IMG/VR virus record: IMGVR_UViG_3300031159_000045
Span: 1 to 36,567 of that record
Direction: 5' to 3' (one strand)
Length of the DNA: 36,567 nt
DNA from: a virus
Taxonomy: Duplodnaviria > Caudoviricetes
The notes below the pieces were generated by a model, which was not told where the DNA came from, did no database searches, and was given only the letters and a program-made list of their open reading frames with translations. The number at the start of each line of letters is the position of its first letter. The first letter of the stretch is position 1. The position numbers and the translations under genes are program-made. Below, piece by piece: positions 7,596-29,569 of the stretch.

Positions 7596-7797
7596 GGTTA
7601 AATATCCCGATGAGTACGGAAGGCCGCTTCTCCAATCCATGATCTCAGAACGAATCTGGGCGCTCATGAAGACGGACAAGCAGGCCTTTCAGCAGGAGGT
7701 TAGGAGGTACTTCGCCGTGGCATACCCGGGGTTCACGGTGGTCCGGGCGAAGTATCCGCACATATTTCTGCGGGATGACCGCGATAGGAGGCAATAA
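7585..7797 (+). CDS. Hypothetical protein
   Basis: Overlaps the recT stop; SD GAGG. Confidence 0.6.
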   Translation: MPTEVKYPDEYGRPLLQSMISERIWALMKTDKQAFQQEVRRYFAVAYPGFTVVRAKYPHIFLRDDRDRRQ

Positions 7798-7798
7798 A

Positions 7799-8422
7799 TT
7801 GCTGAATGACGTCACCGTATTCGATTTCGAAACGTCTGGTTTGAACGCTAAAGAAGACCGCGTCATCGAGATGGCCGCGATCCGGGTGATAAACGGCGAG
7901 ATCGTTACCGAATTCGAGACGCTGGTCCGGCTGGAAGACCGCGAACTGCCGCCGAAGATCACCGAACTGACCGGCATCCGGCCGGAGATGCTCGCCGGCG
8001 GGATGGACGAGATGATCGCCTTTAAGATCCTGCGGAACATCATGGGAGACAGCCTACTGGTCGCGCACAACGCGGCCTTTGACCTTCAGTTCCTGCATTG
8101 GGCGATGCAGCGAATCGGCGGAAAGACATTTCGGAATCCATTCATCGATACCCTTACAATCAGCCGCGAACGTCATGTTTACCCCCATAAGCTGTCGGAC
8201 ATGTGCGAACGATACGGAATCGAGCTGCAAGGCGCTCACCGCGCGCTGAACGACGTCAGGGCCACATGGGAACTTCTGATGGCCCTGCACCTTGAAGATA
8301 GCGTGGAACCATACATCAACCGCCTGGGCTATCTGAACAAGTTTGGCCCTCCTCCTTGGTCCCCTGAGCACGCTATCCTCTTTGGAACCGATAACCGCTA
8401 TGAAGAGCGGAACACGGGGTGA
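7799..8422 (+). CDS. DEDDh 3'-5' exonuclease (DnaQ/PolC-exo-like)
   Basis: DFETSG, AHNAAFD, HRALND motifs; TTG start after AGGAGG. Confidence 0.92.
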   Translation: MLNDVTVFDFETSGLNAKEDRVIEMAAIRVINGEIVTEFETLVRLEDRELPPKITELTGIRPEMLAGGMDEMIAFKILRNIMGDSLLVAHNAAFDLQFLHWAMQRIGGKTFRNPFIDTLTISRERHVYPHKLSDMCERYGIELQGAHRALNDVRATWELLMALHLEDSVEPYINRLGYLNKFGPPPWSPEHAILFGTDNRYEERNTG

Positions 8423-12579: not shown

Positions 12580-12678
12580 ATGAGCGACCAAGAAATCGCT
12601 GAAAAATACAAGATCAAGTTAAGTACGCTGCGGTATTATCAGGCTTTGTGGCGCAAACGAGGTCAACAGAATGCGTAA
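12580..12678 (+). CDS. 32-aa HTH-like peptide or gene remnant
   Basis: MSDQEIAEKYKIKLSTLRYYQ...; SD GAGGGG. Confidence 0.4.
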   Translation: MSDQEIAEKYKIKLSTLRYYQALWRKRGQQNA

Positions 12679-13747
12679 GGCGTCACTTTTTTCCGGCATC
12701 GGAGGGATCGATCTTGCGGCCCATTGGGCGGGCATGGAGACGGTGTGCTTTTGCGAGCGCGAACCGTTCCCGCAGCGCGTCCTCCGCAAACACTGGCCGG
12801 ACGTGCCGATCATCGACGATGTTCATGATTTTACGCGAAAGGAGTTGGAGCGACTTGGCATTATCGGAGACGGTCGAGCAATTGACCTTATTTCCGCCGG
12901 ATACCCTTGCCAGCCTTTCAGTGTCGCCGGGCAGCGACGAGGCACGGAAGATGACCGCCACCTCTGGCCAGAAGTTAAGCGAATCTTATCGGAAATCCGG
13001 CCCCGTTGGTTTGTTGGCGAAAATGTTGCTGGGCACGTCACTTTGGGGCTCGACGATGTGCTTACTGACCTGGGAGGGGCGGGCTACGCCGCGCAAGTGT
13101 TTATTATTCCAGCTGCGGCCGTCGGTGCCAGTCATAGACGAGACAGGGTGTTCATTGTGGCCTACACCGAGGACATTCGATGCAACGTCAGCAGCGAATC
13201 TACCACTGCAGAACAAGGACAGAAAAAGATCGTCTCCGACACACGAAGGACTTGTTCGAGCGGTGAAATTTTGGCCGACGCCCCGGGCGAACGATGCGGA
13301 GAAGCGTGGGAATATATCGGACGATCCGAGGAATGGGCTGCCGGGAATAGTGAAGATGTGGCCCACGCCAGCGGCGCAGGACGCGAAGAATGCAATGCTT
13401 CCGCCGTCTCAATCGGACCGGGACACAGTCCCCGGGGCGGTGATTCGTTCGGGGGAAACCGGCCAACTCAACCCGGAATGGGTGGAAGCGCTCATGAACT
13501 TTCCAATTGGTTGGACGGAGGTGTGAACCCGCTGGATGCTCTCGCCGAGTTTATCGCTCAATATCCGCAACCGGCACTCATGGGGCAGCCGCAGCATACT
13601 TGGGAACCGCCGCGTGTGGCGACGGGCGTCAAGAACCGGTCGGCACGTCTGAAGGCGCTGGGTAACGCGGTGAATCCGTTGCAAATTTATCCGATCATGT
13701 ACGCAATTCGGGTGATTGATGATTGGTTGAGGAGAGATGCCGCATGA
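12671..13747 (+). CDS. C5-cytosine DNA methyltransferase, catalytic (alpha) polypeptide
   Basis: Motifs I FSGIGG, IV GYPCQPFS, VI ENV, VIII HRRDRVFIVAY, X RLKALGNAV; no motif IX recognised. Confidence 0.92.
   Translation: MRKASLFSGIGGIDLAAHWAGMETVCFCEREPFPQRVLRKHWPDVPIIDDVHDFTRKELERLGIIGDGRAIDLISAGYPCQPFSVAGQRRGTEDDRHLWPEVKRILSEIRPRWFVGENVAGHVTLGLDDVLTDLGGAGYAAQVFIIPAAAVGASHRRDRVFIVAYTEDIRCNVSSESTTAEQGQKKIVSDTRRTCSSGEILADAPGERCGEAWEYIGRSEEWAAGNSEDVAHASGAGREECNASAVSIGPGHSPRGGDSFGGNRPTQPGMGGSAHELSNWLDGGVNPLDALAEFIAQYPQPALMGQPQHTWEPPRVATGVKNRSARLKALGNAVNPLQIYPIMYAIRVIDDWLRRDAA
12855..13526 (+). CDS. Nested +1-frame gene: putative MTase beta polypeptide (three WPTP modules and a motif IX-like segment)
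   Basis: Open frame 12648-13526; TTG at 12855 after AAAGGAG; ends GQLNPEWVEALMNFPIGWTEV. Confidence 0.72.
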   Translation: MALSETVEQLTLFPPDTLASLSVSPGSDEARKMTATSGQKLSESYRKSGPVGLLAKMLLGTSLWGSTMCLLTWEGRATPRKCLLFQLRPSVPVIDETGCSLWPTPRTFDATSAANLPLQNKDRKRSSPTHEGLVRAVKFWPTPRANDAEKRGNISDDPRNGLPGIVKMWPTPAAQDAKNAMLPPSQSDRDTVPGAVIRSGETGQLNPEWVEALMNFPIGWTEV

Positions 13748-14550
13748 CCGCCCCGCGCATTTTACACTACCCAGGCAGCAAGTGGAACATGGCTGAATGG
13801 ATCATTGACCATATGCCGCCGCATAAGACGTACCTTGAGCCGTTCTTCGGCAGCGGGGCCGTGTTCTTCAACAAGGAGCCCTCCCCGCTTGAGACAATCA
13901 ACGACCTGGACGGTGACGTGGTCAATCTGTTCCGAGTGATCAGGGATCGTCCGGACGAGCTTGCACGCTTGGTCTATTGGACGCCGTACAGCCGGGAGGA
14001 ATATTACGCCTCATACGACATGGAGGGGGCGGACGAGCTAGAGAGGGCGAGAAGGTTCTTGGTGCGGTGCTGGATGGCGATGGGTGCAAAACTAAGCAAC
14101 AGAACCGGATGGAGAAATAACCATGATGCCAATTCGCCAAGTCTAATCAAGCTATGGGACATGTTGCCGGAGCGCCTGATGATTGTTACGGATCGGTTAA
14201 AGGGTGCACAAATTGAACAGAAACCGGCGTTGGAACTTATCAAGGAATATCGTTCAACTGAAACATTGATCTACGCGGATCCGCCATATCTTCTTTCTAC
14301 GCGAACAGGGAAGGTCTACAAAAATGAAATGGATGAAAACGAACACCTCGAGCTGCTCAATGCATTAGACGCTCATCCCGGGCCTGTTCTTTTATCTGGA
14401 TACGAGCATCCATTGTATCTCAAAAGGTTGAGCCATTGGCATTGTGAGAGAAAAGACGTTCTCGCTCAAGCAGGGAAAATCGCTACCGAAGTCCTCTGGA
14501 TCAACCCAGTCGCAGCCGAACACGCCGGCAGGCAATTGACACTATTCTAA
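13744..14550 (+). CDS. Dam-like (D12 class) N6-adenine DNA methyltransferase
   Basis: YPGSK, EPFFGSG, INDLD, YADPPY; ATGA-coupled to the C5 MTase. Confidence 0.93.
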   Translation: MTAPRILHYPGSKWNMAEWIIDHMPPHKTYLEPFFGSGAVFFNKEPSPLETINDLDGDVVNLFRVIRDRPDELARLVYWTPYSREEYYASYDMEGADELERARRFLVRCWMAMGAKLSNRTGWRNNHDANSPSLIKLWDMLPERLMIVTDRLKGAQIEQKPALELIKEYRSTETLIYADPPYLLSTRTGKVYKNEMDENEHLELLNALDAHPGPVLLSGYEHPLYLKRLSHWHCERKDVLAQAGKIATEVLWINPVAAEHAGRQLTLF

Positions 14551-15551: not shown

Positions 15552-15847
15552 ACGTCCGGAATACAAAAGGCCCCATCATCAGCAGCACGCGGTCGATGAC
15601 CGAACCAACCGGGGCGGAACGGGTGAGGGAATATTGCCCTCCTGACGTACAACGACTTTTTGAAGAGCATTACAACAACATCTTTGCGACGGGTGAACGG
15701 GATTATCGCGAATGCGATATTTGTGAGGCGATTGAAAAGGTTGTGAAAATGTACGGACATGAAATCGATTATAGATTCGATCAAATATCACCTAATGTAA
15801 TCACCATCCCCAGCATCAACGCGCCGGAAGGAGATGAGGACGCATGA
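15548..15847 (+). CDS. Hypothetical protein
   Basis: ATGA coupling; SD AAAGGAG. Confidence 0.6.
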   Translation: MNVRNTKGPIISSTRSMTEPTGAERVREYCPPDVQRLFEEHYNNIFATGERDYRECDICEAIEKVVKMYGHEIDYRFDQISPNVITIPSINAPEGDEDA

Positions 15848-16167
15848 TACGGTTGACGAAAATTGATTCTGAAGGCAATAAGAAACAAATCATCATTGAA
15901 GTTGAATCTATAGAAAGCATCGAAGAATGTTATGGATTTACGGAAATCACTACTAAACGCGGTTGGGTAATCAAAATCACCGAATCCCCGCAGGAAGTCG
16001 CCCGTAAGGTGCTGGAGTGGCGGCTTGCGATGGAGCGGTATCGAGCATACGTAAACGCCGCCGCTTTGGACGAAAAACCGCAGTCTAACGAATGTTGGGA
16101 ACTTGCGGCAAACGCGAAGGCGGAACTTGTGAGACTCGCCGGACTGGAGGAACCGAACCATGGGTGA
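15844..16167 (+). CDS. FlbD/SwrD-family-like protein
   Basis: MIRLTK...IESIEE...TEIT...ITESPQEVARKVLEWR matches the remembered FlbD pattern. Confidence 0.65.
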   Translation: MIRLTKIDSEGNKKQIIIEVESIESIEECYGFTEITTKRGWVIKITESPQEVARKVLEWRLAMERYRAYVNAAALDEKPQSNECWELAANAKAELVRLAGLEEPNHG

Positions 16168-18988: not shown

Positions 18989-20680
18989 GTGCTTCTCGCC
19001 AAGATCCACGACCGGATAAAGGAACAGGCCAAAGTCAAGAACACCCCGAAATGGGTGCGGGAACCGCGCAAGTACATCGAAGAGCGACTATACATCCGTA
19101 CCAAAACCAAACAGGTCGTGCCGCTGCGCTTCAATCCGATACAGTCCATGTATTGGGATGCGAAGACGAAGCGCGACATCATTCTCAAACCTCGCCAGCT
19201 TGGGTTTTCGACCCTGACGCTCGCGAGGTTTTTTGAGTGCGTCATAAATGAGGAAAACGTCACGGCGGTCGTCGTGGCGCACGATGCGGACAGCACGCAG
19301 AAGCTTTTCCAGACGGTCCAGCTTATGTACGAGCGGCTTCCGGAAGCGAAGAAGGAGCAGCTCAACAACGGCAAAAATAAGCCAAAATACGGCAACCGGA
19401 AGGAATACTACTTCGCCGGAAACAACAGCCGGATTTACGTCGGTACCGCTGGATCCAGCAGTTTCGGCCGCGGGCAGACGATCAACTATCTCCTGTGTTC
19501 GGAGGTCGCGTTCTGGCCTAACCCGGAAGAACTCATGACCGGACTTCTGCAGGCTGTTCCGCCGGACGGCGAAGTCGTGATCGAGAGCACGGCCAACGGC
19601 GTCGGCAACTACTACCACCAGACGTACGAGGACGCCAAGCGCGGAAAGAACACGTGGAAGGCGCACTTCTATGCCTGGTTCCAACACCCGGAGTATCGCC
19701 TCGAACTCGCTCCGGGGGAAACGCTGGAATACGACGAAGATGAGCGCGAACTGATCTCGAAATATGGCGTCGATGACGCGCAACTCAAATGGCGCCGCTG
19801 GAAGATCAGCGAGATGCCGAGCAAGCCGGACATGAGCAAGGAGGACGCGTTCAAGCAGGAGTATCCGGCCAACGACCTCGAGGCGTTCCTGATGACCGGC
19901 ACGCCGGTATTCGATACACGGAAGGTTATGGCGCGCATCGAATTCCTGGAGACCAAGCGGGCGACGATGCGCCCGGACGAACTGCCTGTGCGCGGGAACT
20001 TCGTTTTCAAATACAAGGACCAGATGATCGTCGACAGCAGCATTAGCTTTGTGCCGGATCCGAACGGCGTCGTCACCATCTACAAACATCCTGAGCCGCG
20101 ACGCCCGTACGTGCTCGGCGGGGACACCTCGGAGGGCGGCAAGGACTACAGCGCCGGCCAGATGCTGGACAATATCACCGGCGAGCAGGTGGCCGTCTGG
20201 CATGGGCACAGCGACACGGATTTGTTCGCCAAGCAGATGTACTGCTTCTGCCGCTTCTATAACGGCGCGCTTGCGGCGATCGAGGTCAACTTTGACTTGC
20301 ACCCGGTCAAGGAGCTTGAACGCCTCGGATACTGGCACCAATACCGGCGCGAGCAGATCGACGATTACAACGAGCCTGAGCAGAGCAAGCATGGCTTTAA
20401 AACGACGCCCGTGACACGGCCGGTCATCATTGCGGAACTCGTGGCGATCGTTCGGGAGTCGATCCATCTGATCAACGATCTGCCGACGCTCTACGAGATG
20501 CTGTCGTTCGTTCGCGGGCCCACTGGCAAACCTGAGGCAGCGCCCGGCAAGCACGACGACCTCATTATGGCGCTGGCGATCGCGCACCAAGCGCGTGGCC
20601 AGCAGTCGATGCAACTGGCTCCGGAACAAATCGATTACGACCCAGATTATGAGCCAGCTTTCGGAAGGACGGGATGGTAA
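18989..20680 (+). CDS. terL: Terminase large subunit
   Basis: ILKPRQLGFST Walker A, LLCSEVAFW Walker B, IESTANG, GGDTSEG, HDDLIMA nuclease motifs. Confidence 0.95.
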   Translation: MLLAKIHDRIKEQAKVKNTPKWVREPRKYIEERLYIRTKTKQVVPLRFNPIQSMYWDAKTKRDIILKPRQLGFSTLTLARFFECVINEENVTAVVVAHDADSTQKLFQTVQLMYERLPEAKKEQLNNGKNKPKYGNRKEYYFAGNNSRIYVGTAGSSSFGRGQTINYLLCSEVAFWPNPEELMTGLLQAVPPDGEVVIESTANGVGNYYHQTYEDAKRGKNTWKAHFYAWFQHPEYRLELAPGETLEYDEDERELISKYGVDDAQLKWRRWKISEMPSKPDMSKEDAFKQEYPANDLEAFLMTGTPVFDTRKVMARIEFLETKRATMRPDELPVRGNFVFKYKDQMIVDSSISFVPDPNGVVTIYKHPEPRRPYVLGGDTSEGGKDYSAGQMLDNITGEQVAVWHGHSDTDLFAKQMYCFCRFYNGALAAIEVNFDLHPVKELERLGYWHQYRREQIDDYNEPEQSKHGFKTTPVTRPVIIAELVAIVRESIHLINDLPTLYEMLSFVRGPTGKPEAAPGKHDDLIMALAIAHQARGQQSMQLAPEQIDYDPDYEPAFGRTGW

Positions 20681-20695
20681 GGAGGGTAGCCGAAA

Positions 20696-20905
20696 ATGAA
20701 ACTTGATTGGGATAAGGCTTTGAAACACGGCATCTTCGCGGCTCTGTTCGTCGCGCTTCTGGCATTCACGATGAACGAGAACCGCGCTCGCGAACAGGAG
20801 TACCGGCAGATCATCCAGCAGCAAACAGAAGCTAACGCCAAATTTGCCGACTTGATCAAAATCGATCTGACGCAGATTAAAGACAAACTCGCAGAGGGGA
20901 GGTAA
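20696..20905 (+). CDS. BhlA/UviB-like holin
   Basis: GIFAALFVALL TM segment followed by ENRAREQEYRQII coiled coil; 69 aa. Confidence 0.75.
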   Translation: MKLDWDKALKHGIFAALFVALLAFTMNENRAREQEYRQIIQQQTEANAKFADLIKIDLTQIKDKLAEGR

Positions 20906-20911
20906 GGCACG

Positions 20912-22888
20912 TTGGCCAAACAATCGCAGAAAAACCTGACAAAGTACCTGCAGCGAATCGAATACGCCGAACAAAAGCGCGATGCGGTCTGGCGCGACAA
21001 ATGGCTGGCTTGGTACAAGCGGTACCGTAACGTCGTGGATATGGTGGTCGATCCACGGACGAAAAAGCCGCGCCTGGACCGCTCGAACATTTCCATTCCG
21101 TACCAATTCACGATGGTGGAGACGGTGCTTCCGCGGCTGGTCGAGACGCTTTTCGCTGGTCGCCCATACGTTACCATGAAGGGGCTGCCTCCCGGAACTT
21201 CCGGCGGTGATGTTCGGTCTTTCGTCGAAATGGTGAAGGCGAAAATCAAGCCATGGGAAGACGCTGCCAAGAATATGGAAACGCTCGTCGATTATCAAAT
21301 GAACGTCCCGATGGACATCCAGGACATTTTCGCGGACGGCCTTAAGGGCATGTGCATCTACGGTACGGCCGTGGCTTATACCGGCTGGCGGCTGCGGGAA
21401 CGCGAAGTAATACGACGAGAACGGCGGCCGGTAATGTCTGGCGAATTTGACCCAGAAACCGGCGAGGAACTTCCGATGATTGTTAGCGGTGAAATCGTCA
21501 CAGACTTCCAAGAAGTGTCTGTCAGCGTCAAAGAATACGACGATCCGGAGGTCAGATTCGTGGATCTGGGCCTCTTTTTTGTGGATCCGAACGCGACGGA
21601 CATCGACGACGCTCGCTATTGCGGCCATGACGTATACGTCTCGAAGCGCGAACTCGAGGCGTTGGAAGAACAGGGGGTAATCCGGGTTGATTGGAAACGG
21701 CTGTCGAAGGATTCCCAGGTCAATGAAGCGCGCAATTATCGCATGACGTCGATCGGTCTCCCGTCGGTAGACGACCAGGACGACAACGGCCACGATGACG
21801 ATCTTTACCGCCTAACCTACTATTGGGAAGACGATCTGCGCGTCATGATCCTGAACCGCTGTCAGGTGGTCGCAGAAGGACCGAATCCGTACTGGCATAA
21901 GAAAAAGCCGTACGACAAGGACGTATACTGCGGCGTTCCCGGGGAGTTCTACGGCATCGGCATCATGGAAATCACCCAGGACTTGGGCGACGAACTCAAC
22001 GCCGAGCGTAACCAGCGGATCGATTACCGTTCCATGAGTATGCGACGGATGTTCAAGAAGCGTCGCGGGGCAAACATCGATCCGAATCAGTTGGTATGGC
22101 GACAGGGTGGAGTCATCGATGTCGAGAAAATGGACGACCTTGAAACGCTGGACGCTCCTGACGGCGCGCTGGCGGGTTCTTTTAACCAGGAGGCCATGAT
22201 CAAGCAGGACATCCGTGACGCGGTCGGCGCGCACGACATCGTTATGGGTGCGGCCAGCGGTGGAACGGCCACTGAAGCGATGACGCGGGACAACAACGCG
22301 TCGATCCGGTTCAAGATGATCATCAGTTCAGTGGAAAAGCGCCTACTGCTCGGTGTCGCCCGCAAGATGGTGCAGCTCAACCAGCAGTTCATTGCCGACA
22401 TCCGCGTGCTACCGTTGTTCGATCAGGACGAAAGTCAATGGCCGATCATAACGCCGGAGGATATTCAGGGCGAGTTTCACATCATCGCGTCCGGCAGCAA
22501 CGTGGAGCCGCTGGCCAACAAAGAGGCATTCAAACAGAGAATGGTGGAACTGTACCGGATTGTAGCATCCGATCCGTTTTATCAGCAGTTCCCCAATAAG
22601 CGCCGCAATCTTCTCCAGAAGGTGTTCGAGTCCTTCGACATTCAGGACACGGACGACCTGCTGCCGACCGATGACGAGCTTGCCGGTAGCATCCAGCAAA
22701 TGGCGGTGCAGCAGTTTATCTCAACGCTGCCGCCACAGTTGCAGGCCGTCCTACAGACGGTTATGCAGCAGCAGGCAGCGTCGCCACCGTCCATTCCTTC
22801 CGTTCCTCCGGCCGGCGGCGCGCTTAACACGGCGGCGATGCAGGAACAAGGGCTGCAGATGTCCGGCGCCATCGGGGGTGCCGTATGA
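20912..22888 (+). CDS. Portal protein (P22/podovirus-like)
   Basis: 658 aa after terL; FFVDPNA, FYGIGI, TATEA motifs; Q-rich C-terminus. Confidence 0.85.
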   Translation: MAKQSQKNLTKYLQRIEYAEQKRDAVWRDKWLAWYKRYRNVVDMVVDPRTKKPRLDRSNISIPYQFTMVETVLPRLVETLFAGRPYVTMKGLPPGTSGGDVRSFVEMVKAKIKPWEDAAKNMETLVDYQMNVPMDIQDIFADGLKGMCIYGTAVAYTGWRLREREVIRRERRPVMSGEFDPETGEELPMIVSGEIVTDFQEVSVSVKEYDDPEVRFVDLGLFFVDPNATDIDDARYCGHDVYVSKRELEALEEQGVIRVDWKRLSKDSQVNEARNYRMTSIGLPSVDDQDDNGHDDDLYRLTYYWEDDLRVMILNRCQVVAEGPNPYWHKKKPYDKDVYCGVPGEFYGIGIMEITQDLGDELNAERNQRIDYRSMSMRRMFKKRRGANIDPNQLVWRQGGVIDVEKMDDLETLDAPDGALAGSFNQEAMIKQDIRDAVGAHDIVMGAASGGTATEAMTRDNNASIRFKMIISSVEKRLLLGVARKMVQLNQQFIADIRVLPLFDQDESQWPIITPEDIQGEFHIIASGSNVEPLANKEAFKQRMVELYRIVASDPFYQQFPNKRRNLLQKVFESFDIQDTDDLLPTDDELAGSIQQMAVQQFISTLPPQLQAVLQTVMQQQAASPPSIPSVPPAGGALNTAAMQEQGLQMSGAIGGAV

Positions 22889-23112
22889 CCGAAGCTCAGG
22901 CCGTGCGTTATACGACGCAGACGGAGGGTTGGGCTATCATCGAGGCGGAAATTCATCGATCGCTGGACTACCACCGCGGGCGTCTGGAAGACTGCAAAAC
23001 ATGGGACGAGGTGCAACAGCATCGCGGGGCGATAAGGGCGCTTACTGCGGTGCTTTCGCATGTTGAACAAACGATCAGGGAGGAGGTGGAAGAGGGTGGC
23101 GAGGTACCGTAA
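22885..23112 (+). CDS. Small protein between portal and scaffold
   Basis: ATGA coupling; T.GW.II...QHRGAIRAL pattern. Confidence 0.7.
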   Translation: MTEAQAVRYTTQTEGWAIIEAEIHRSLDYHRGRLEDCKTWDEVQQHRGAIRALTAVLSHVEQTIREEVEEGGEVP

Positions 23113-23262
23113 AAAGCCGGTTGTTGTCGAATCTGAGTAGTAGTTACCGCAGAAAATTAAAAACCGCGGGCCCGGTGAGACTCCGCGCCCGCACATCCAC
23201 TTCGGTGGAACGGCTCCTATTCGGGGGCATTTTTATATTCCACATTGAAAGGGGAAAACCCA

Positions 23263-24138
23263 ATGAGCATTTTCGGTGACGAGACGATAACCCTTCCCGG
23301 ATCCCCGGATGCCGGACAAGACGAGGGCGGGGCCGTAAGTGCCGGAAACGAAAACGACGCCGCCGAAGGTTTCGAAGAACGCGAAGACGCGGAATTCGAA
23401 GAAGCCGACGAAGGCGGCGAGCAGCAAGACGACGAACAAGCCGATGACGATGAAGGCGATGCGTCCCCGGGCGATGATGCCGGACAAGGCGACAACGGCC
23501 TCATTCTCGGTAAGTTCAAGACGCAGGAAGACCTGGCCAAAGCGTATCTCAATCTGCAGCGGGAATTTACGAAGCAGCGCCAAGCGCGGTCTCAGCAGCA
23601 GCCGGCGGCCGCGCCTGCACAAACAGGACAAGGACAGTCGGTCGACCTGAACGAAGTGTTCTGGGCTCAGTTCCGCCAAAACCCGGCTGCGACCATCCAG
23701 GCAATCGTTCAGCACGCCGTCTCGCAACATACTGCGCCGCTCGTTGAAGAACGCCGGACGGAAGTACTTGGGCGTCAATTTGAGGAATTGGCGAAGGAAT
23801 ACCGCCAGCTTGCGACGGACGAGGGCATGCAGAAGTTTACGGCGGCTATCCAGGACGTTGCGGCAGAACTCGGCAATCCCGATCTGGCATTCAACCCGAC
23901 GCCTCGCATGCTCCGCATGGCGGCTCAAGAAGCGTTCGGGGACACTGCGGCAAAGGCGTACGAACGCGGCAAGCAAGCCGGCCGCCAGGACTCCGAGCGG
24001 GCGCGACAAAGCAAGCAAGGCGTCGCTGTCCCGGTCGGAGGAGCAAAACGCAAGGCAGAGACACTGAAGACGCCGGCGGACGAAATCAAGGCGGCCATCT
24101 TGGAGGCCGGACGATCCGGCGGCGGCATCTTCGGTTAA
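23263..24138 (+). CDS. Capsid scaffolding protein
   Basis: Acidic N-terminus, GKFKTQEDLAKAYLNLQ, helical; directly before the capsid gene. Confidence 0.8.
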   Translation: MSIFGDETITLPGSPDAGQDEGGAVSAGNENDAAEGFEEREDAEFEEADEGGEQQDDEQADDDEGDASPGDDAGQGDNGLILGKFKTQEDLAKAYLNLQREFTKQRQARSQQQPAAAPAQTGQGQSVDLNEVFWAQFRQNPAATIQAIVQHAVSQHTAPLVEERRTEVLGRQFEELAKEYRQLATDEGMQKFTAAIQDVAAELGNPDLAFNPTPRMLRMAAQEAFGDTAAKAYERGKQAGRQDSERARQSKQGVAVPVGGAKRKAETLKTPADEIKAAILEAGRSGGGIFG

Positions 24139-24162
24139 TTCAAATCCAAGGAGTGATCACAT

Positions 24163-25317
24163 ATGGCAGTAGTAACGGGAACTCGTGATACCCGAAACAT
24201 CACGCAAAACAAAATTGTTGTCGACATGAGCGACACGATCGCGCTGCTGCAGCCCAATGCAGAGCCGTTCATGTCGTTCCTCAAAATCGCGAAACGCAAC
24301 ACGGAAGTGGCCACCAACCCGAAGTTCGAATGGTTGGAAGACGATCTCCTGCCGCGCTGGGACGCCGTGAACAACGCTTCCGGCTATCAGCCCTCGGATA
24401 CGTCCATTGTGGTGGACAACAGCTCGTATTTTACCGTCAACGATGTCGTCAAGGTGCCGCGGACCGGCGAGGTTTTGCTGGTGACGGCCATCAACACGAC
24501 GACCAATACGCTGACGGTCGTGCGCGGGTACGGCGTGACGGCGGCGGCCGCGCTCAATGATGACGATCCGCTCGTCATCATCGGTAATGCCAACCAAGAA
24601 GGTTCCGGTACCCGCGAGCTTAAGTCTACGCAGGAAGTGCCCAAATTCAACTACACCCAGATCTTCAAAACTCCCTTCGGTGTGACGAATACCGAAAACG
24701 CAACGAAGATGTACGGCGGCAAAGACCTGTCGTATCAGCAAATGAAGGCAGGCGTGCAGCACAAGATTGACATGGCCCGCGCCTTCGTTTTCGGTGAGCG
24801 AAAAGAGGACCTCAGCGGCGGAAAACCGAAGCGCACGACGGGCGGACTGCTGTCGTTCCTGACCAAAAACAACTACGATGCCGGCGGCCAGTTGACGCAG
24901 ACGGAGTTCGACAACAATATCTCGGAGGTCGTGTTCAAGTATGGCAGCAAGGAAAAAATCCTGCTCGCGTCGGCTCGCTTGCTGTCCGTCATCAACAGCT
25001 GGGCGCTTGGTAGGCTCCAAGTCGACAACCTGGCGAAGCAGTACGGCCTTGAAATCTTCAAGTACGTCACGCCTTTTGGCGTTTACAACATCATGAACTA
25101 TCAACACATCCTCGAAGGCGCTGTATACGGGGGCTACGGCATCGTGATCGATCCGGAGGCCGTCAAATATCGCCCGCTGCAAGGACGCGATACGAAGCTG
25201 GAGACCAACATCCAGGCGAACGACGAGGACCAGCGGAAGGACCAATACATCACGGAGGCGGGCCTCGAAGTCCGCAATCCGGAGAAACACGCCGTCATCA
25301 CCGGCGTAACGAGCTAA
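24163..25317 (+). CDS. Major capsid protein (SU10/DUF5309-like)
   Basis: KFEWLEDDL, NYTQIF, RTTGGLL, ITEAGLEVRN. Confidence 0.85.
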   Translation: MAVVTGTRDTRNITQNKIVVDMSDTIALLQPNAEPFMSFLKIAKRNTEVATNPKFEWLEDDLLPRWDAVNNASGYQPSDTSIVVDNSSYFTVNDVVKVPRTGEVLLVTAINTTTNTLTVVRGYGVTAAAALNDDDPLVIIGNANQEGSGTRELKSTQEVPKFNYTQIFKTPFGVTNTENATKMYGGKDLSYQQMKAGVQHKIDMARAFVFGERKEDLSGGKPKRTTGGLLSFLTKNNYDAGGQLTQTEFDNNISEVVFKYGSKEKILLASARLLSVINSWALGRLQVDNLAKQYGLEIFKYVTPFGVYNIMNYQHILEGAVYGGYGIVIDPEAVKYRPLQGRDTKLETNIQANDEDQRKDQYITEAGLEVRNPEKHAVITGVTS

Positions 25318-25333
25318 GGAGGTACAAACAGTC

Positions 25334-25579
25334 ATGGCGAAATTTCAAAGTCGCTGCCCGAATCAAGTCTTGTGCATCAAGCCGGCGCGCAATTCGGTTG
25401 TCGACGGCATCGTCGTTCCGGTTCCGGGTGAGCACATCCGGTTCGAGAACGGGGAGTACGTCACGAACGACAAAGACAAGATCGCGTTCCTGCGTAAGCA
25501 TCGTTTTTTTGGAACATCGATCGTCGAAGTGACGACCGCGGAAGCGAAAAAAGCGGAGCCGCCGGTGCCCGCGGAATAA
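25334..25579 (+). CDS. Small head-associated protein
   Basis: SD AAGGAGG; follows the capsid gene. Confidence 0.7.
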   Translation: MAKFQSRCPNQVLCIKPARNSVVDGIVVPVPGEHIRFENGEYVTNDKDKIAFLRKHRFFGTSIVEVTTAEAKKAEPPVPAE

Positions 25580-25597
25580 TGATTCGTACTCCTGACG

Positions 25598-25627
25598 AGG
25601 CAGGGCATTTTGATGTCCTGCCTTTTT
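25598..25627 (+). terminator. Intrinsic terminator after the head genes
   Basis: AGGCAGGGCAT-TTTG-ATGTCCTGCCT followed by a T run. Confidence 0.8.
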
Positions 25628-25650
25628 CTGTATAAGGACGGTGAAACGAT

Positions 25651-26220
25651 GTGGCAATGACATACGGCGAAATCATCGCGGAGGCCGACGAGCGGTATCC
25701 GAACGGCCTGACGGTGGATTCGAAACTGCGGAAGATTTACAACCGAGAAACGTTTCTCATGCGGACGATCTACCGCCAGAAGACGGCGACGGTATTCGAT
25801 GTGCAGGCTGGGCTGTTCCTGTACCCAATCAACTTCCACCATTCGAAAATCTTTCAGGCCATCTATGCCGGCAAATTCTTCGAATACGAGGACATTAACG
25901 ACAAGACCGGGCAGCCTCCGTTTATGTACACGTACGAGAATTACATCGGGGTTTATCCGACGCCGGACAAGGATATTCAGGGCGGCTTGCTGCTGTTCCA
26001 CTACGTCGAACCGACATGGCCGCTGTCGACCGGTTACTATCCGGTGTTTGACCCGGATTTCCCGATGGTGTTGGTCTATTCGCTTTGCAAAGACATGGCC
26101 GAGGTCAACAAGGAGTTCGACGTGGCCAACGGGTTCATTCAGCAATATAACGCCGAGATCGAGGAGTTCATGAAGGTTAACCGCGAGCCGGCGCCATCTC
26201 AGATGAGGGTGGAGTGGTGA
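25651..26220 (+). CDS. Head-tail adaptor (tail tubular A-like)
   Basis: 189 aa; IGVYPTPD motif; position. Confidence 0.7.
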   Translation: MAMTYGEIIAEADERYPNGLTVDSKLRKIYNRETFLMRTIYRQKTATVFDVQAGLFLYPINFHHSKIFQAIYAGKFFEYEDINDKTGQPPFMYTYENYIGVYPTPDKDIQGGLLLFHYVEPTWPLSTGYYPVFDPDFPMVLVYSLCKDMAEVNKEFDVANGFIQQYNAEIEEFMKVNREPAPSQMRVEW

Positions 26221-28275: not shown

Positions 28276-29569
28276 GCATTGCTTAATATTTTGGCTTGTG
28301 TCAATCGCCCGGTCTGTATTCCTGATAATTGATTGCTGCTTTCAAAAACTTCTTCAGTATTGAGGTTGTTCTTCAGGAAGACCAGCACCATCAACAAGGT
28401 AATATACCGGGTCGAAAATATATCAGGAATCAAGCAAGTTCCAAGCACGGTGAGCAAAATCAGCCAGGATTCATGCATACGATTCCGTGAATCAAGTATT
28501 GCAAAAATGAAAAGTGAGGTATCGGTTGGCCCATTAACGAAGAAATATAGTCTCTGCTAAATCCGTAACCCAATAATGGTTTTTCCTTAAACATATTGAT
28601 TGCAATCTCATAACCAACATCTCTCTCTGATGTGGAGAAAAGAATATCTTTAATACCGGATTGTTGCCGAACTGATGTGTAAAGACTATAGGCACCGAAT
28701 AAACCAACTACACCAAGAAAAGCAGAAACTAATTTACGAGTTACACCTTTTTGTCCAACGAAAATATACATCATGTATAAAGCAAAAAATACGACTAATC
28801 CTGTGCGGGCTGATGTAATCGCAGCACCAATTAAAATGATGATTGGAGTTAACCATGATTTAATTTTGGACTTTTGATTACTTAATAGCTGAATCGATAA
28901 GAAAGCGGTTGTTACTAAGTACAATGATGCATGGCTAGGTTCAGAAAATAGAAAGTAAAAAGACTGTCGGTTTAAAAAGAACTCTACAACCCCAATAGTT
29001 GTTCCGAATTTAAATAAAACATACTGTACTATGATGCCTATACTGGAGAAAAGTCCAGCCTTTATGTAACTTTTTTCAATGTACAGTAGATTAGTTTCAC
29101 TTATCACTCTTCCTTTAAGGAGAGCAACAAGCACAATAATGCTGTGAAAAGACAAAATAATAAACTGACTCAGTCCTTGACTAAAATAATTCGAGTTTGT
29201 GATCAATAAGGGGATGATCGAAAATAGTATTACAAAAAAAATAATGAGACCAAGCGTAAACATTGACCGGTTTAGTTTTATGTCTTTCTTCATCGAAAGC
29301 AAATGAATTATGAGAAGCAGGCCAAATAAGTAAAACCAGGCAATCGGTAGTTCTCCGTAATCGCCACCGAAAACATTACGCCATGATAACGGTATGCTAT
29401 AGCACATGATTTGCACTAAAGCGGTGGTCTTGTTCGACTTCTTTTTAAATTTTCTATAGGCGTACACGAAAAACAAAATGGAAAATCCGAAAATAGCGAA
29501 TCCGGGTATACTGTAAGTTACACCTACGGCCCATATGATTAACAAAGAAAAGTACAAAATATTTACCAT
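28269..29569 (-). pseudogene. Wzy/O-antigen ligase-family membrane protein, apparently frameshifted near the 3' end
   Basis: Multiple TM segments; FSEPS, TSARTG, PLLGYG, PH motifs; frame 28460..29569 stops early and a hydrophobic tail continues in 28269..28478. Confidence 0.7.

Follow-up and report, generated by a model that had tools for sequence, protein, structure and literature searches.

A gene nested in the +1 frame of a temperate-phage methylase gene: evidence for a likely two-chain cytosine-C5 methylase with exchangeable modules and a clamp-type tag

The window analysed here is the 36,567-nucleotide stretch that makes up IMG/VR virus record IMGVR_UViG_3300031159_000045 (Duplodnaviria; Caudoviricetes). 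At 12671..13747 (+) it carries a cytosine-C5 methyltransferase (C5-MTase) gene that contains a second gene, at 12855..13526 (+), entirely within it and in the +1 frame. Recoding tests and comparison with relatives show that both frames are held open and under selection. The longer frame encodes a catalytic chain (alpha), and the shorter one a chain (beta) made up of a short motif of the sliding-clamp-binding type, an arm, three tandem modules beginning with WPTP, and C5-MTase motif IX. Taken as a whole, the evidence leads us to favour, with some reserve, a two-chain phage cytosine-C5 methylase with exchangeable target modules and a clamp tag.

Results

The catalytic chain and the frame nested in it

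Alpha, 358 residues long, matches PHROG 363 (E 1e-79) and PF00145 (E 1e-37), the Pfam match being limited to residues 1-189. In the usual C5-MTase motif numbering it has motifs I to VIII and X. The motifs that place it in the PF00145 family are all present, starting at 12686 (I, LFSGIGG), 12899 (IV, GYPCQ, with its PC), 13019 (VI, ENV), 13133 (VIII, HRRDRV) and 13646 (X, RLKALGNAVNP); an earlier reading of this DNA, made without database searches (the sequence-only reading), had named the same five, and all coordinates check. It had also described alpha between motifs VIII and X as filler. This holds for the Ser/Gly-rich part, with 19 Gly and 15 Ser among the 125 residues 166-290, and the alpha frame over the modules (13166..13540, +) stays open with little sequence conservation. 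It does not hold for the conserved C-terminal part at 13562..13678 (+), which includes YPQPALMG, WEPPRV and motif X: the segment 13562-13618 (YPQPALMG...WEPPRV) is found again in relatives, and alpha residues 274-318 lie within the predicted interface with beta.

The +1 frame is open from 12648 to 13526. Beta (223 residues) begins at a TTG at 12855, where homologues have Met, and AAAGGAG at 12838..12844 (+), 10 nt before the TTG, is its likely ribosome-binding site; these features had been proposed before, and both their coordinates and the starts of homologues agree. Of 108 nested loci, 41 have at this place a start with a Shine-Dalgarno (SD) match of at least 5 nt; among 432 control windows, 9 do. 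Beta, in which an arm of about 100 residues stands ahead of the modules, matches PHROG 1008, 'DNA methyltransferase' (E 3e-43), and in the record of phage Leyra both genes are annotated, nested. Matches to beta comprise 1,336 proteins among 1,802 candidates and 78 of 50,697 phage records; at E 1e-10 the beta profile matches 30,293 clusters at 50% identity, and a search of the ESM Atlas returned only unnamed viral clusters. Over alpha motifs IV to VIII beta forms an N-terminal arm (12894..13157, +), predicted to be a docking arm, whose consensus exceeds the alpha-synonymous expectation at many columns.

Several relatives have insertions in this part of the gene. Insertions of 21 or 33 codons lie between motifs IV and VIII in L100, L104, L112, L136, L157, P0021 and P0047, with both frames still open; P0130 has a LAGLIDADG domain (PF00961) inside the arm of a beta-like protein; and L245 has, by eye, an HNH-like insert (826-1533) before motif IV.

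Selection on both frames

When the window's alpha was recoded synonymously, the beta frame acquired 7.0 stops on average and none of 100 shuffles left it open; with beta recoded, the alpha frame acquired 6.0 on average and was open in none of 200. The third frame of the window has 5 stops against 4.9 expected. Loci were then collected through beta. The 160 loci found via the beta alignment, together with Leyra and the window, gave 153 unique loci, of which 136 are nested, six carry motif X in beta, five are incomplete and two are without a hit; three with a stop in alpha and one with a frameshift are the cases that do not fit. Beta is offset by +1 relative to alpha in all 151 loci having both hits. 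When beta was recoded synonymously over the 136 module regions, 936 alpha-frame stops and 0.9 stop-free loci were expected, and the third frame has 976 stops; zero stops in the nested class is true by definition, and the informative figure is the 136 of 153 that are open. The six loci with motif X in beta provide a natural control, with 67 alpha-frame stops against 62 expected. These comparisons show that alpha needs just an open path across the modules to reach motif X, as the sequence-only reading had supposed.

A second set was selected through alpha. It comprises 80 contigs, 76 of them usable, with 11 shared with the beta-selected set and one being the window's twin. Both frames are open and nested in 71 of the 76, three have motif X in beta, one has a frameshift and one is not open from the motif position.

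Differences at beta codon positions 1/2/3 are 0.22/0.18/0.57 over the modules, where pairs were picked at 50% or more beta-frame identity, which favours this result, and 0.17/0.16/0.44 over motif IX, where pairs were anchored on a beta motif. The corresponding values are 0.21/0.41/0.32 over the IV-VIII overlap and 0.32/0.68/0.37 over the alpha-only motif I region. By this measure the modules and motif IX are constrained in the beta frame, whereas over IV-VIII both frames share the constraint. The shift towards the +1 frame that had been expected in 13158-13526 is thus present there but is not confined to it, extending also to the N-terminal arm over motifs IV to VIII.

Two artefacts were considered. 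Contigs from other runs show zero differences to parts of the window, for example 13146-13519, and L162 is 100% identical to it over alpha 1-170; together these rule out an assembly error as the source of the two frames. The recoding tests, the alpha-selected loci and the identical contigs likewise rule out beta as an artefact or chance open reading frame (ORF).

Motif IX and the predicted alpha-beta complex

The +1 frame had been read as ending in motif IX, and this is supported by a gapless match to an M.EcoHK31I-type beta. Motif IX (GQLNPEWVEALMNFPIGWT) lies at 13461..13517 (+) and is predicted to pack on alpha 312-350. The gene used for comparison, L243, is an Escherichia coli allele located through a published primer; it encodes an alpha of 309 residues and, in the +1 frame, a beta of 176 residues, and adjoins a NotI-family nuclease. 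The beta profile matches motif IX of the L243 beta with E 2.9e-4 and a match probability of 40%. Between the beta arm and the L243 beta 19 columns align over the alpha ENV motif (E 0.05-0.08, not significant), possibly as a by-product of that motif. Pfam did not detect motif IX in beta.

Structure prediction of alpha with beta returned a score of 0.90 in three runs, the best of three controls scoring 0.00; the score mark applied is reached by 116 of 157 solved complexes and by 2 of 215 mismatched pairs. The binding of alpha to beta, for which such a co-prediction had been proposed as a check, is thus predicted. At least 72% of contacts are common to the runs, and the partner chain has a predicted local distance difference test score (pLDDT) of 61-62. 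The predicted interface consists of beta 47-89, 165-178 and 201-223, with beta 1-30 outside it; in the model beta 85-87 touch alpha 143-146 and motif IX of beta packs at the motif X region. Two points temper this result: each chain was supplied with an 86-row alignment made for this analysis, and the IX-X part may pass in some measure because it resembles solved one-chain enzymes. Beta and its profile gave 0 hits at E 10 among PDB sequences. On balance we regard a real alpha/beta heterodimer as very probable.

A different way of joining the two frames would be programmed frameshifting, +1 after motif VIII and back after motif IX, giving one chain with no separate beta. Genes fused by fixed frameshifts do exist, and in P0029, P0041 and P0336 motifs I-III are fused in frame to beta. 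One chain would, however, need two shifts, and the beta arm, upstream of motif VIII, is selected, has start and SD signals and lies in the predicted interface; M.EcoHK31I, moreover, is active as two chains according to the available text of PMC2836561. We consider a frameshifted single chain highly improbable.

WPTP modules and their exchange

Three tandem WPTP modules start where the sequence-only reading had placed them. Module 1 (WPTPRTFDA..., 38 residues; 13158..13271, +) is of a rare type, a singleton among 1,504 modules, with close copies in P0078 and P0083; it is swapped in contigs of runs X2 and X3 (joint 13169-13272). The other two are common: module 2 (WPTPRANDAEKRG..., 29 residues; 13272..13358, +) belongs to a family of 95 and module 3 (WPTPAAQDAKN..., 33 residues; 13359..13457, +) to a family of 78 that stands last in 67 arrays. 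The 1,504 modules come from 492 distinct arrays in loci and proteins, with 1-9 modules per array and 365 families at the middle threshold. Internal modules have a median length of 32 residues, starting W-P-T-P and ending L-x-x-A-V-K-(L/M).

Modules are gained, lost and reordered whole in relatives, in agreement with the earlier proposal that they can be added or swapped. Near-relative contigs diverge from the window at 13162, 13272 and 13359 and run on into different module ends, and 20 pairs of module families are seen in both orders. Among 24 loci, 164 of 188 indels (pairs not independent) are multiples of three, mostly of 81-138 bases, as had been expected, the remaining 24 not being so. 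These comparisons show exchange of whole modules at the WPTP codon. Within arrays of two or more modules, a family is repeated in none of 455 at each of three thresholds, against means of 25-32 expected by shuffling across thresholds (permutation mean 28.9, minimum 13; with first, middle and last places kept apart, mean 23.7, minimum 11). Arrays without repeats, reordering and whole exchange fit modules whose functions do not duplicate one another, like the tandem target recognition domains (TRDs) of Bacillus phage enzymes.

We think it somewhat more probable than the contrary that the modules set sequence specificity, and a number of observations weigh against this. Profile and hidden Markov model comparisons of the modules with the TRDs of SPbeta MtbP showed no likeness, at low power, since a control motif X profile also missed MtbP; sequence searches against solved TRDs in the PDB, likewise of low power, showed none; and Pfam, again at low power, found 0 families in the six proteins with motif X in beta. 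Predicted folds of the modules are of low confidence, both in the one-chain relative P0136 (pLDDT 29-47, in a protein whose core folds well) and when modules 2-3 and motif IX are folded alone (mean pLDDT 56). In the predicted complex only the last module touches alpha, through its WPTP (beta 165-178). The missing repeats could also stem from recombination deleting identical copies. Structural comparison placed the model of a one-chain relative on M.HhaI (Z 21.8, root-mean-square deviation 3.5, 232 aligned); Foldseek and VIA-align matched only the C5-MTase core, and the modules are not resolved by these matches.

Some of these observations would also suit a heterodimer in which the modules are not alternative specificity units, with one or relaxed specificity: DNA would be read by the module adjacent to motif IX alone, or the array as a whole would contribute processivity or non-specific binding. 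The single contact at beta 165-178, the failure to find TRD homology and the position of some families, nearly always last (22 of 25 for family 3), point this way. Avidity would, however, favour repeats, of which the arrays have none; the distinct families number in the hundreds, are conserved and change order, and common ones stand first, middle or alone. We judge this alternative unlikely, though it is the one to be taken most seriously.

The modules might instead be protein-binding or decoy peptides carried on a methylase subunit, for example against host defence proteins, and not DNA readers. Their low-confidence folding suggests that they are probably flexible, and L324 and L245 keep the arm and a module on beta without motif IX. 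Against this, in two-chain and one-chain forms alike the modules stand ahead of motif IX, at the place of a TRD, and the enzyme has no other candidate recognition region, the alpha filler being unconstrained. A role as decoys therefore appears very doubtful, and we return to modules that contribute to specificity as the preferred reading.

Other layouts among relatives

Relatives distribute the same parts differently between the frames. In L002, L004, L011, L092, L103 and L136, and in P0078 and P0083, alpha stops just past motif VIII and beta consists of the modules, motif IX and motif X, a layout like that of M.AquI. In a one-chain layout, motifs IV, VIII, IX and X occur together in 90 of 120 proteins tested; in 82 of these 90, one or more modules occupy the TRD position, between VIII and IX. 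One-chain proteins and nested genes have module families in common, and some one-chain relatives have an additional unit after motif IX.

Traces of the overlap remain in the one-chain proteins. Where beta reads W[PA]TP, the alpha frame reads [VML][AGV][DNHY][APST] (227 of 227), and this alpha-frame ghost word is kept just after motif VIII in 63 of 93 one-chain proteins. In L324 (1200-2540, 1399-1872) and L245 (1457-2547), whose DNA was inspected in full, motif IX and later modules have moved into alpha, and what remains in the +1 frame is a Qxx[LM]F-type start followed by the arm and by one or two modules, with no motif IX. This layout indicates that modules would work on either chain and that loss of motif IX does not entail loss of the arm. 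One-chain relatives as ancestral monomers were considered and rejected, because the WPTP ghosts and the short beta of L324 and L245 indicate derivation. To judge from these traces, the one-chain relatives look derived from nested genes and hence offer no independent proof of TRD function, a further point on the opposing side.

In P0029, P0041 and P0336 the fusion joins motifs I-III to the whole of beta and lacks motif IV; by their sequences, these proteins would be either a frame-swapped variant or frameshift errors. A second two-frame lineage (L350, L352, L356, L360 and others) has no WPTP modules; its +1 frame resembles, by eye, the EcoHK31I beta (CSLSxVLE...YYLS), and in the four loci named it also begins with QL[TS]LF. 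In the classing of loci, the 'single' class is mostly a different, EcoHK31I-like lineage, and 68 of 160 loci are unclassed.

A clamp-type tag at the beta N-terminus

Residues 9-13 of beta read QLTLF (12879..12893, +), a conserved pentapeptide of the sliding-clamp-binding type that lies outside the predicted alpha interface. The sequence-only reading had missed both this motif and the conserved N-terminal arm. The bacterial beta-clamp consensus is given as QL(S/D)LF in the part of PMC9690074 available, and the window tag differs from such clients in having T at position 3. The chance of a QLTLF-type motif arising in the window, given the alpha residues, is 0.009. The tag is present in 76 of 147 beta-selected loci against 1.8 expected and in 25 of 76 alpha-selected loci against 0.4 expected, and 38 different alpha hexamers underlie it. 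Among 191 unique loci pooled from the 241 passing a motif and open-frame filter, which are related so that counts are not independent, 127 have Qxx[LM]F against 4.1 expected, with 0-2 in control windows and frames; the other 64 have none at the beta start. At the protein level it is carried by 114 of 181 betas.

The tag has two main registers: in 82 loci it stands at codon -7 from motif IV (QLTLF type), in 40 at codon -13 (QMDLF and QKDLF type). These overlie different alpha residues and mostly lie 2-8 codons past a start. The two registers argue for selection on the motif rather than inheritance of a single site. The Dam-like methylase encoded next to alpha also ends in QLTLF (14533-14547). 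It has 13 homologues whose C-terminus could be read, the twin L162 included, and by eye 8 of them end in a Qxx[LMI]F-type motif. As in beta-clamp clients, in MuC and, by analogy, in the DNMT1-PCNA link, beta has a short Q-x-x-L-F peptide at a chain end and outside the folded interface; an N-terminal clamp motif works in phage Mu MuC (bioRxiv 2025.01.04.631326), and PMC9690074 describes the DNMT1-PCNA link, both in the portions available. In the literature searched, with subscription and older work thinly covered, we found no report that a methylase of a phage or bacterium is a client of the beta clamp.

It could be argued that QLTLF is a by-product of alpha codons without a clamp role, or that the chief role of the enzyme is regulation of phage or host genes and not defence against restriction. 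The tag is absent in 64 of 191 loci, shared ancestry inflates the counts, and the EcoHK31I-type beta of L243 starts later, without such a motif. Opposed to this are the low probability of the window tag given alpha, the 38 hexamers beneath it, the second register in 40 loci and the same motif on the unrelated Dam-like neighbour and its relatives. We consider these alternatives improbable and conclude, from the distribution of the motif, that beta probably binds the clamp.

Comparison with known methylases

M.EcoHK31I (YGGCCR) resembles the window pair in that its beta lies wholly inside alpha in the +1 frame, with motifs I-VIII and X in alpha and motif IX, with an FPxxWT ending, in beta. In the available text of PMC2836561 the enzyme works as two chains and its beta N-terminus aids association; here the beta N-terminal arm sits in the predicted interface. 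The TRD of M.EcoHK31I, however, lies in alpha (PMC2836561, PMC3404938, in the parts available), whereas here the variable modules are in beta, and alpha over them is little conserved and filled with stops when freed. The analogy drawn in the sequence-only reading thus stands for layout and motif IX and fails for the TRD. In L243, furthermore, beta lacks WPTP and QxxLF and starts at alpha codon 104, after motif IV, and a cognate restriction enzyme adjoins. The window's beta opens with QLTLF ahead of motif IV, and its gene stands as an orphan in the replication operon of a phage.

SPR, phi3T, SPbeta MtbP, H2 and phiBssHII are multispecific single-chain C5-MTases of temperate Bacillus phages with tested TRDs (PMC8936443 and PMC12707154, as far as available). 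Like the window pair, the Bacillus phage enzymes are temperate-phage orphans with tandem variable units between motifs VIII and IX. They differ in being single chains: in the present family a second chain, read from another frame, carries the units, up to 9 per array, and the single-polypeptide feature of SPR, phi3T and MtbP is not found in the window, where motifs IX and X are in different frames. The unit after motif IX in some one-chain relatives recalls phiBssHII, named in a title cited in PMC8936443. The suggestion that the modules are tandem specificity units as in SPR and phi3T is therefore supported by their position and whole exchange but not by likeness to MtbP or solved TRDs, none being found at low power. 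In M.AquI alpha has motifs I-VIII and beta the distal variable region, IX and X (PMC3404938, available part). Six of the 153 relatives split likewise, alpha ending after VIII, although their genes still overlap across IV-VIII; M.AquI has motif X on beta, whereas the window keeps it in alpha. The window pair is thus similar to M.EcoHK31I in layout and to SPR and phi3T in modularity, and misses defining features of both (TRD in alpha; single chain).

The same two proteins make up PHROG 363 and PHROG 1008 and occur in Paenibacillus larvae phages, for example as Leyra gp61 and gp62; both are annotated 'DNA-cytosine methyltransferase' in some records. A paper on these phages lists both genes and, in its available text, does not discuss nesting, modules or function (PMC6070908). 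We found no papers on the nesting, modules or clamp tag of this phage family, older and subscription literature being thinly covered.

Phage setting and neighbouring genes

The window is a single 36.6-kb contig whose gene content reads as that of a temperate phage. Its order runs from integrase through repressor-type helix-turn-helix genes, YqaJ/RecT, replication protein O, DnaB and RusA to the methylases, a sigma factor, terminase, SU10-like portal, capsid and adaptor. No DNA polymerase or sliding clamp was found among the window ORFs scanned, and the phage would therefore replicate with host polymerase and clamp. In a tree of 191 alpha rows, a quick version with many open forks from which clamp-tag gains were not counted, the nearest relatives of alpha come from Paenibacillaceae.

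The alpha/beta gene is flanked by ORFs of no known kind and the Dam-like (D12) adenine methylase gene (13744..14550, +; PF02086, DPPY at 14278), whose ATG overlaps the alpha stop; no cognate restriction enzyme is among the flanking genes. In contigs of runs X4 and X5 the entire Dam-like gene (13744-14550) is missing, with 38 bases in its place, and it is thus an exchangeable cassette. Promoter and terminator scans gave matches at chance level. Of the words depleted in the phage genome (CCGA, CGCGCG and AGCGCT are low), none is assignable to a module.

Elsewhere in the window, SU10-type portal, major capsid and adaptor genes (20912-26220) occur in the same phage as integrase and repressor genes. 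A 901-codon open frame at 19088-21793 (-), antisense to terminase and portal and without a PHROG match, is possibly a shadow of codon bias. A low-GC O-antigen-ligase-like gene (Wzy_C) at 28460-29569 (-), on the opposite strand after a tailspike-like gene, is a candidate lysogenic-conversion moron. A small FlbD-like protein (15844-16167) and a DEDDh exonuclease (7775-8422) are encoded in the early/middle region.

Discussion

In the two-chain methylase that we favour, ribosomes would start separately at 12671 and 12855 on one replication-operon mRNA (repO, DnaB, RusA). Alpha would provide the catalytic motifs, and beta is predicted to dock by its arm (47-89) and motif IX (201-223), with the last WPTP (165-178) alongside. 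Each beta module would likely recognise a different DNA target, and the N-terminal QLTLF likely binds the host sliding clamp, so that the heterodimer would follow the fork on DnaN, which the neighbouring Dam-like enzyme may do as well. New phage DNA would then be marked at up to three sequence types and shielded from host restriction. Recombination at the shared WPTP junction would swap modules and change specificity, and the subunits would stay together because beta lies inside alpha. The context of the gene makes anti-restriction a reasonably likely main purpose. We advance more tentatively, and at rather less than even odds, the wider proposal that a very large and mostly unannotated phage family builds a clamp-riding programmable methylase from an overprinted adaptor and hundreds of modules of about 30 residues, each with its own target, that are added, reordered and moved between chains by frameshifts.

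Gene callers usually miss beta, so annotation is incomplete for many phage 'dcm' genes, and a codon-optimised clone of alpha would no longer encode its beta partner. The coexistence of nested forms, forms with motif X in beta and forms with motif IX in alpha presents overlapping genes in motion, with a built-in control for a released frame. The clamp tag would be a prokaryotic parallel to the DNMT1-PCNA coupling of methylation to replication. Should each module set a target of its own, the family, with 365 module families in this small sample, would be a natural collection of several hundred compact plug-in units of DNA recognition for m5C methylases, useful for methylase design. That would also account for the way in which temperate phages cope with a diversity of restriction systems.

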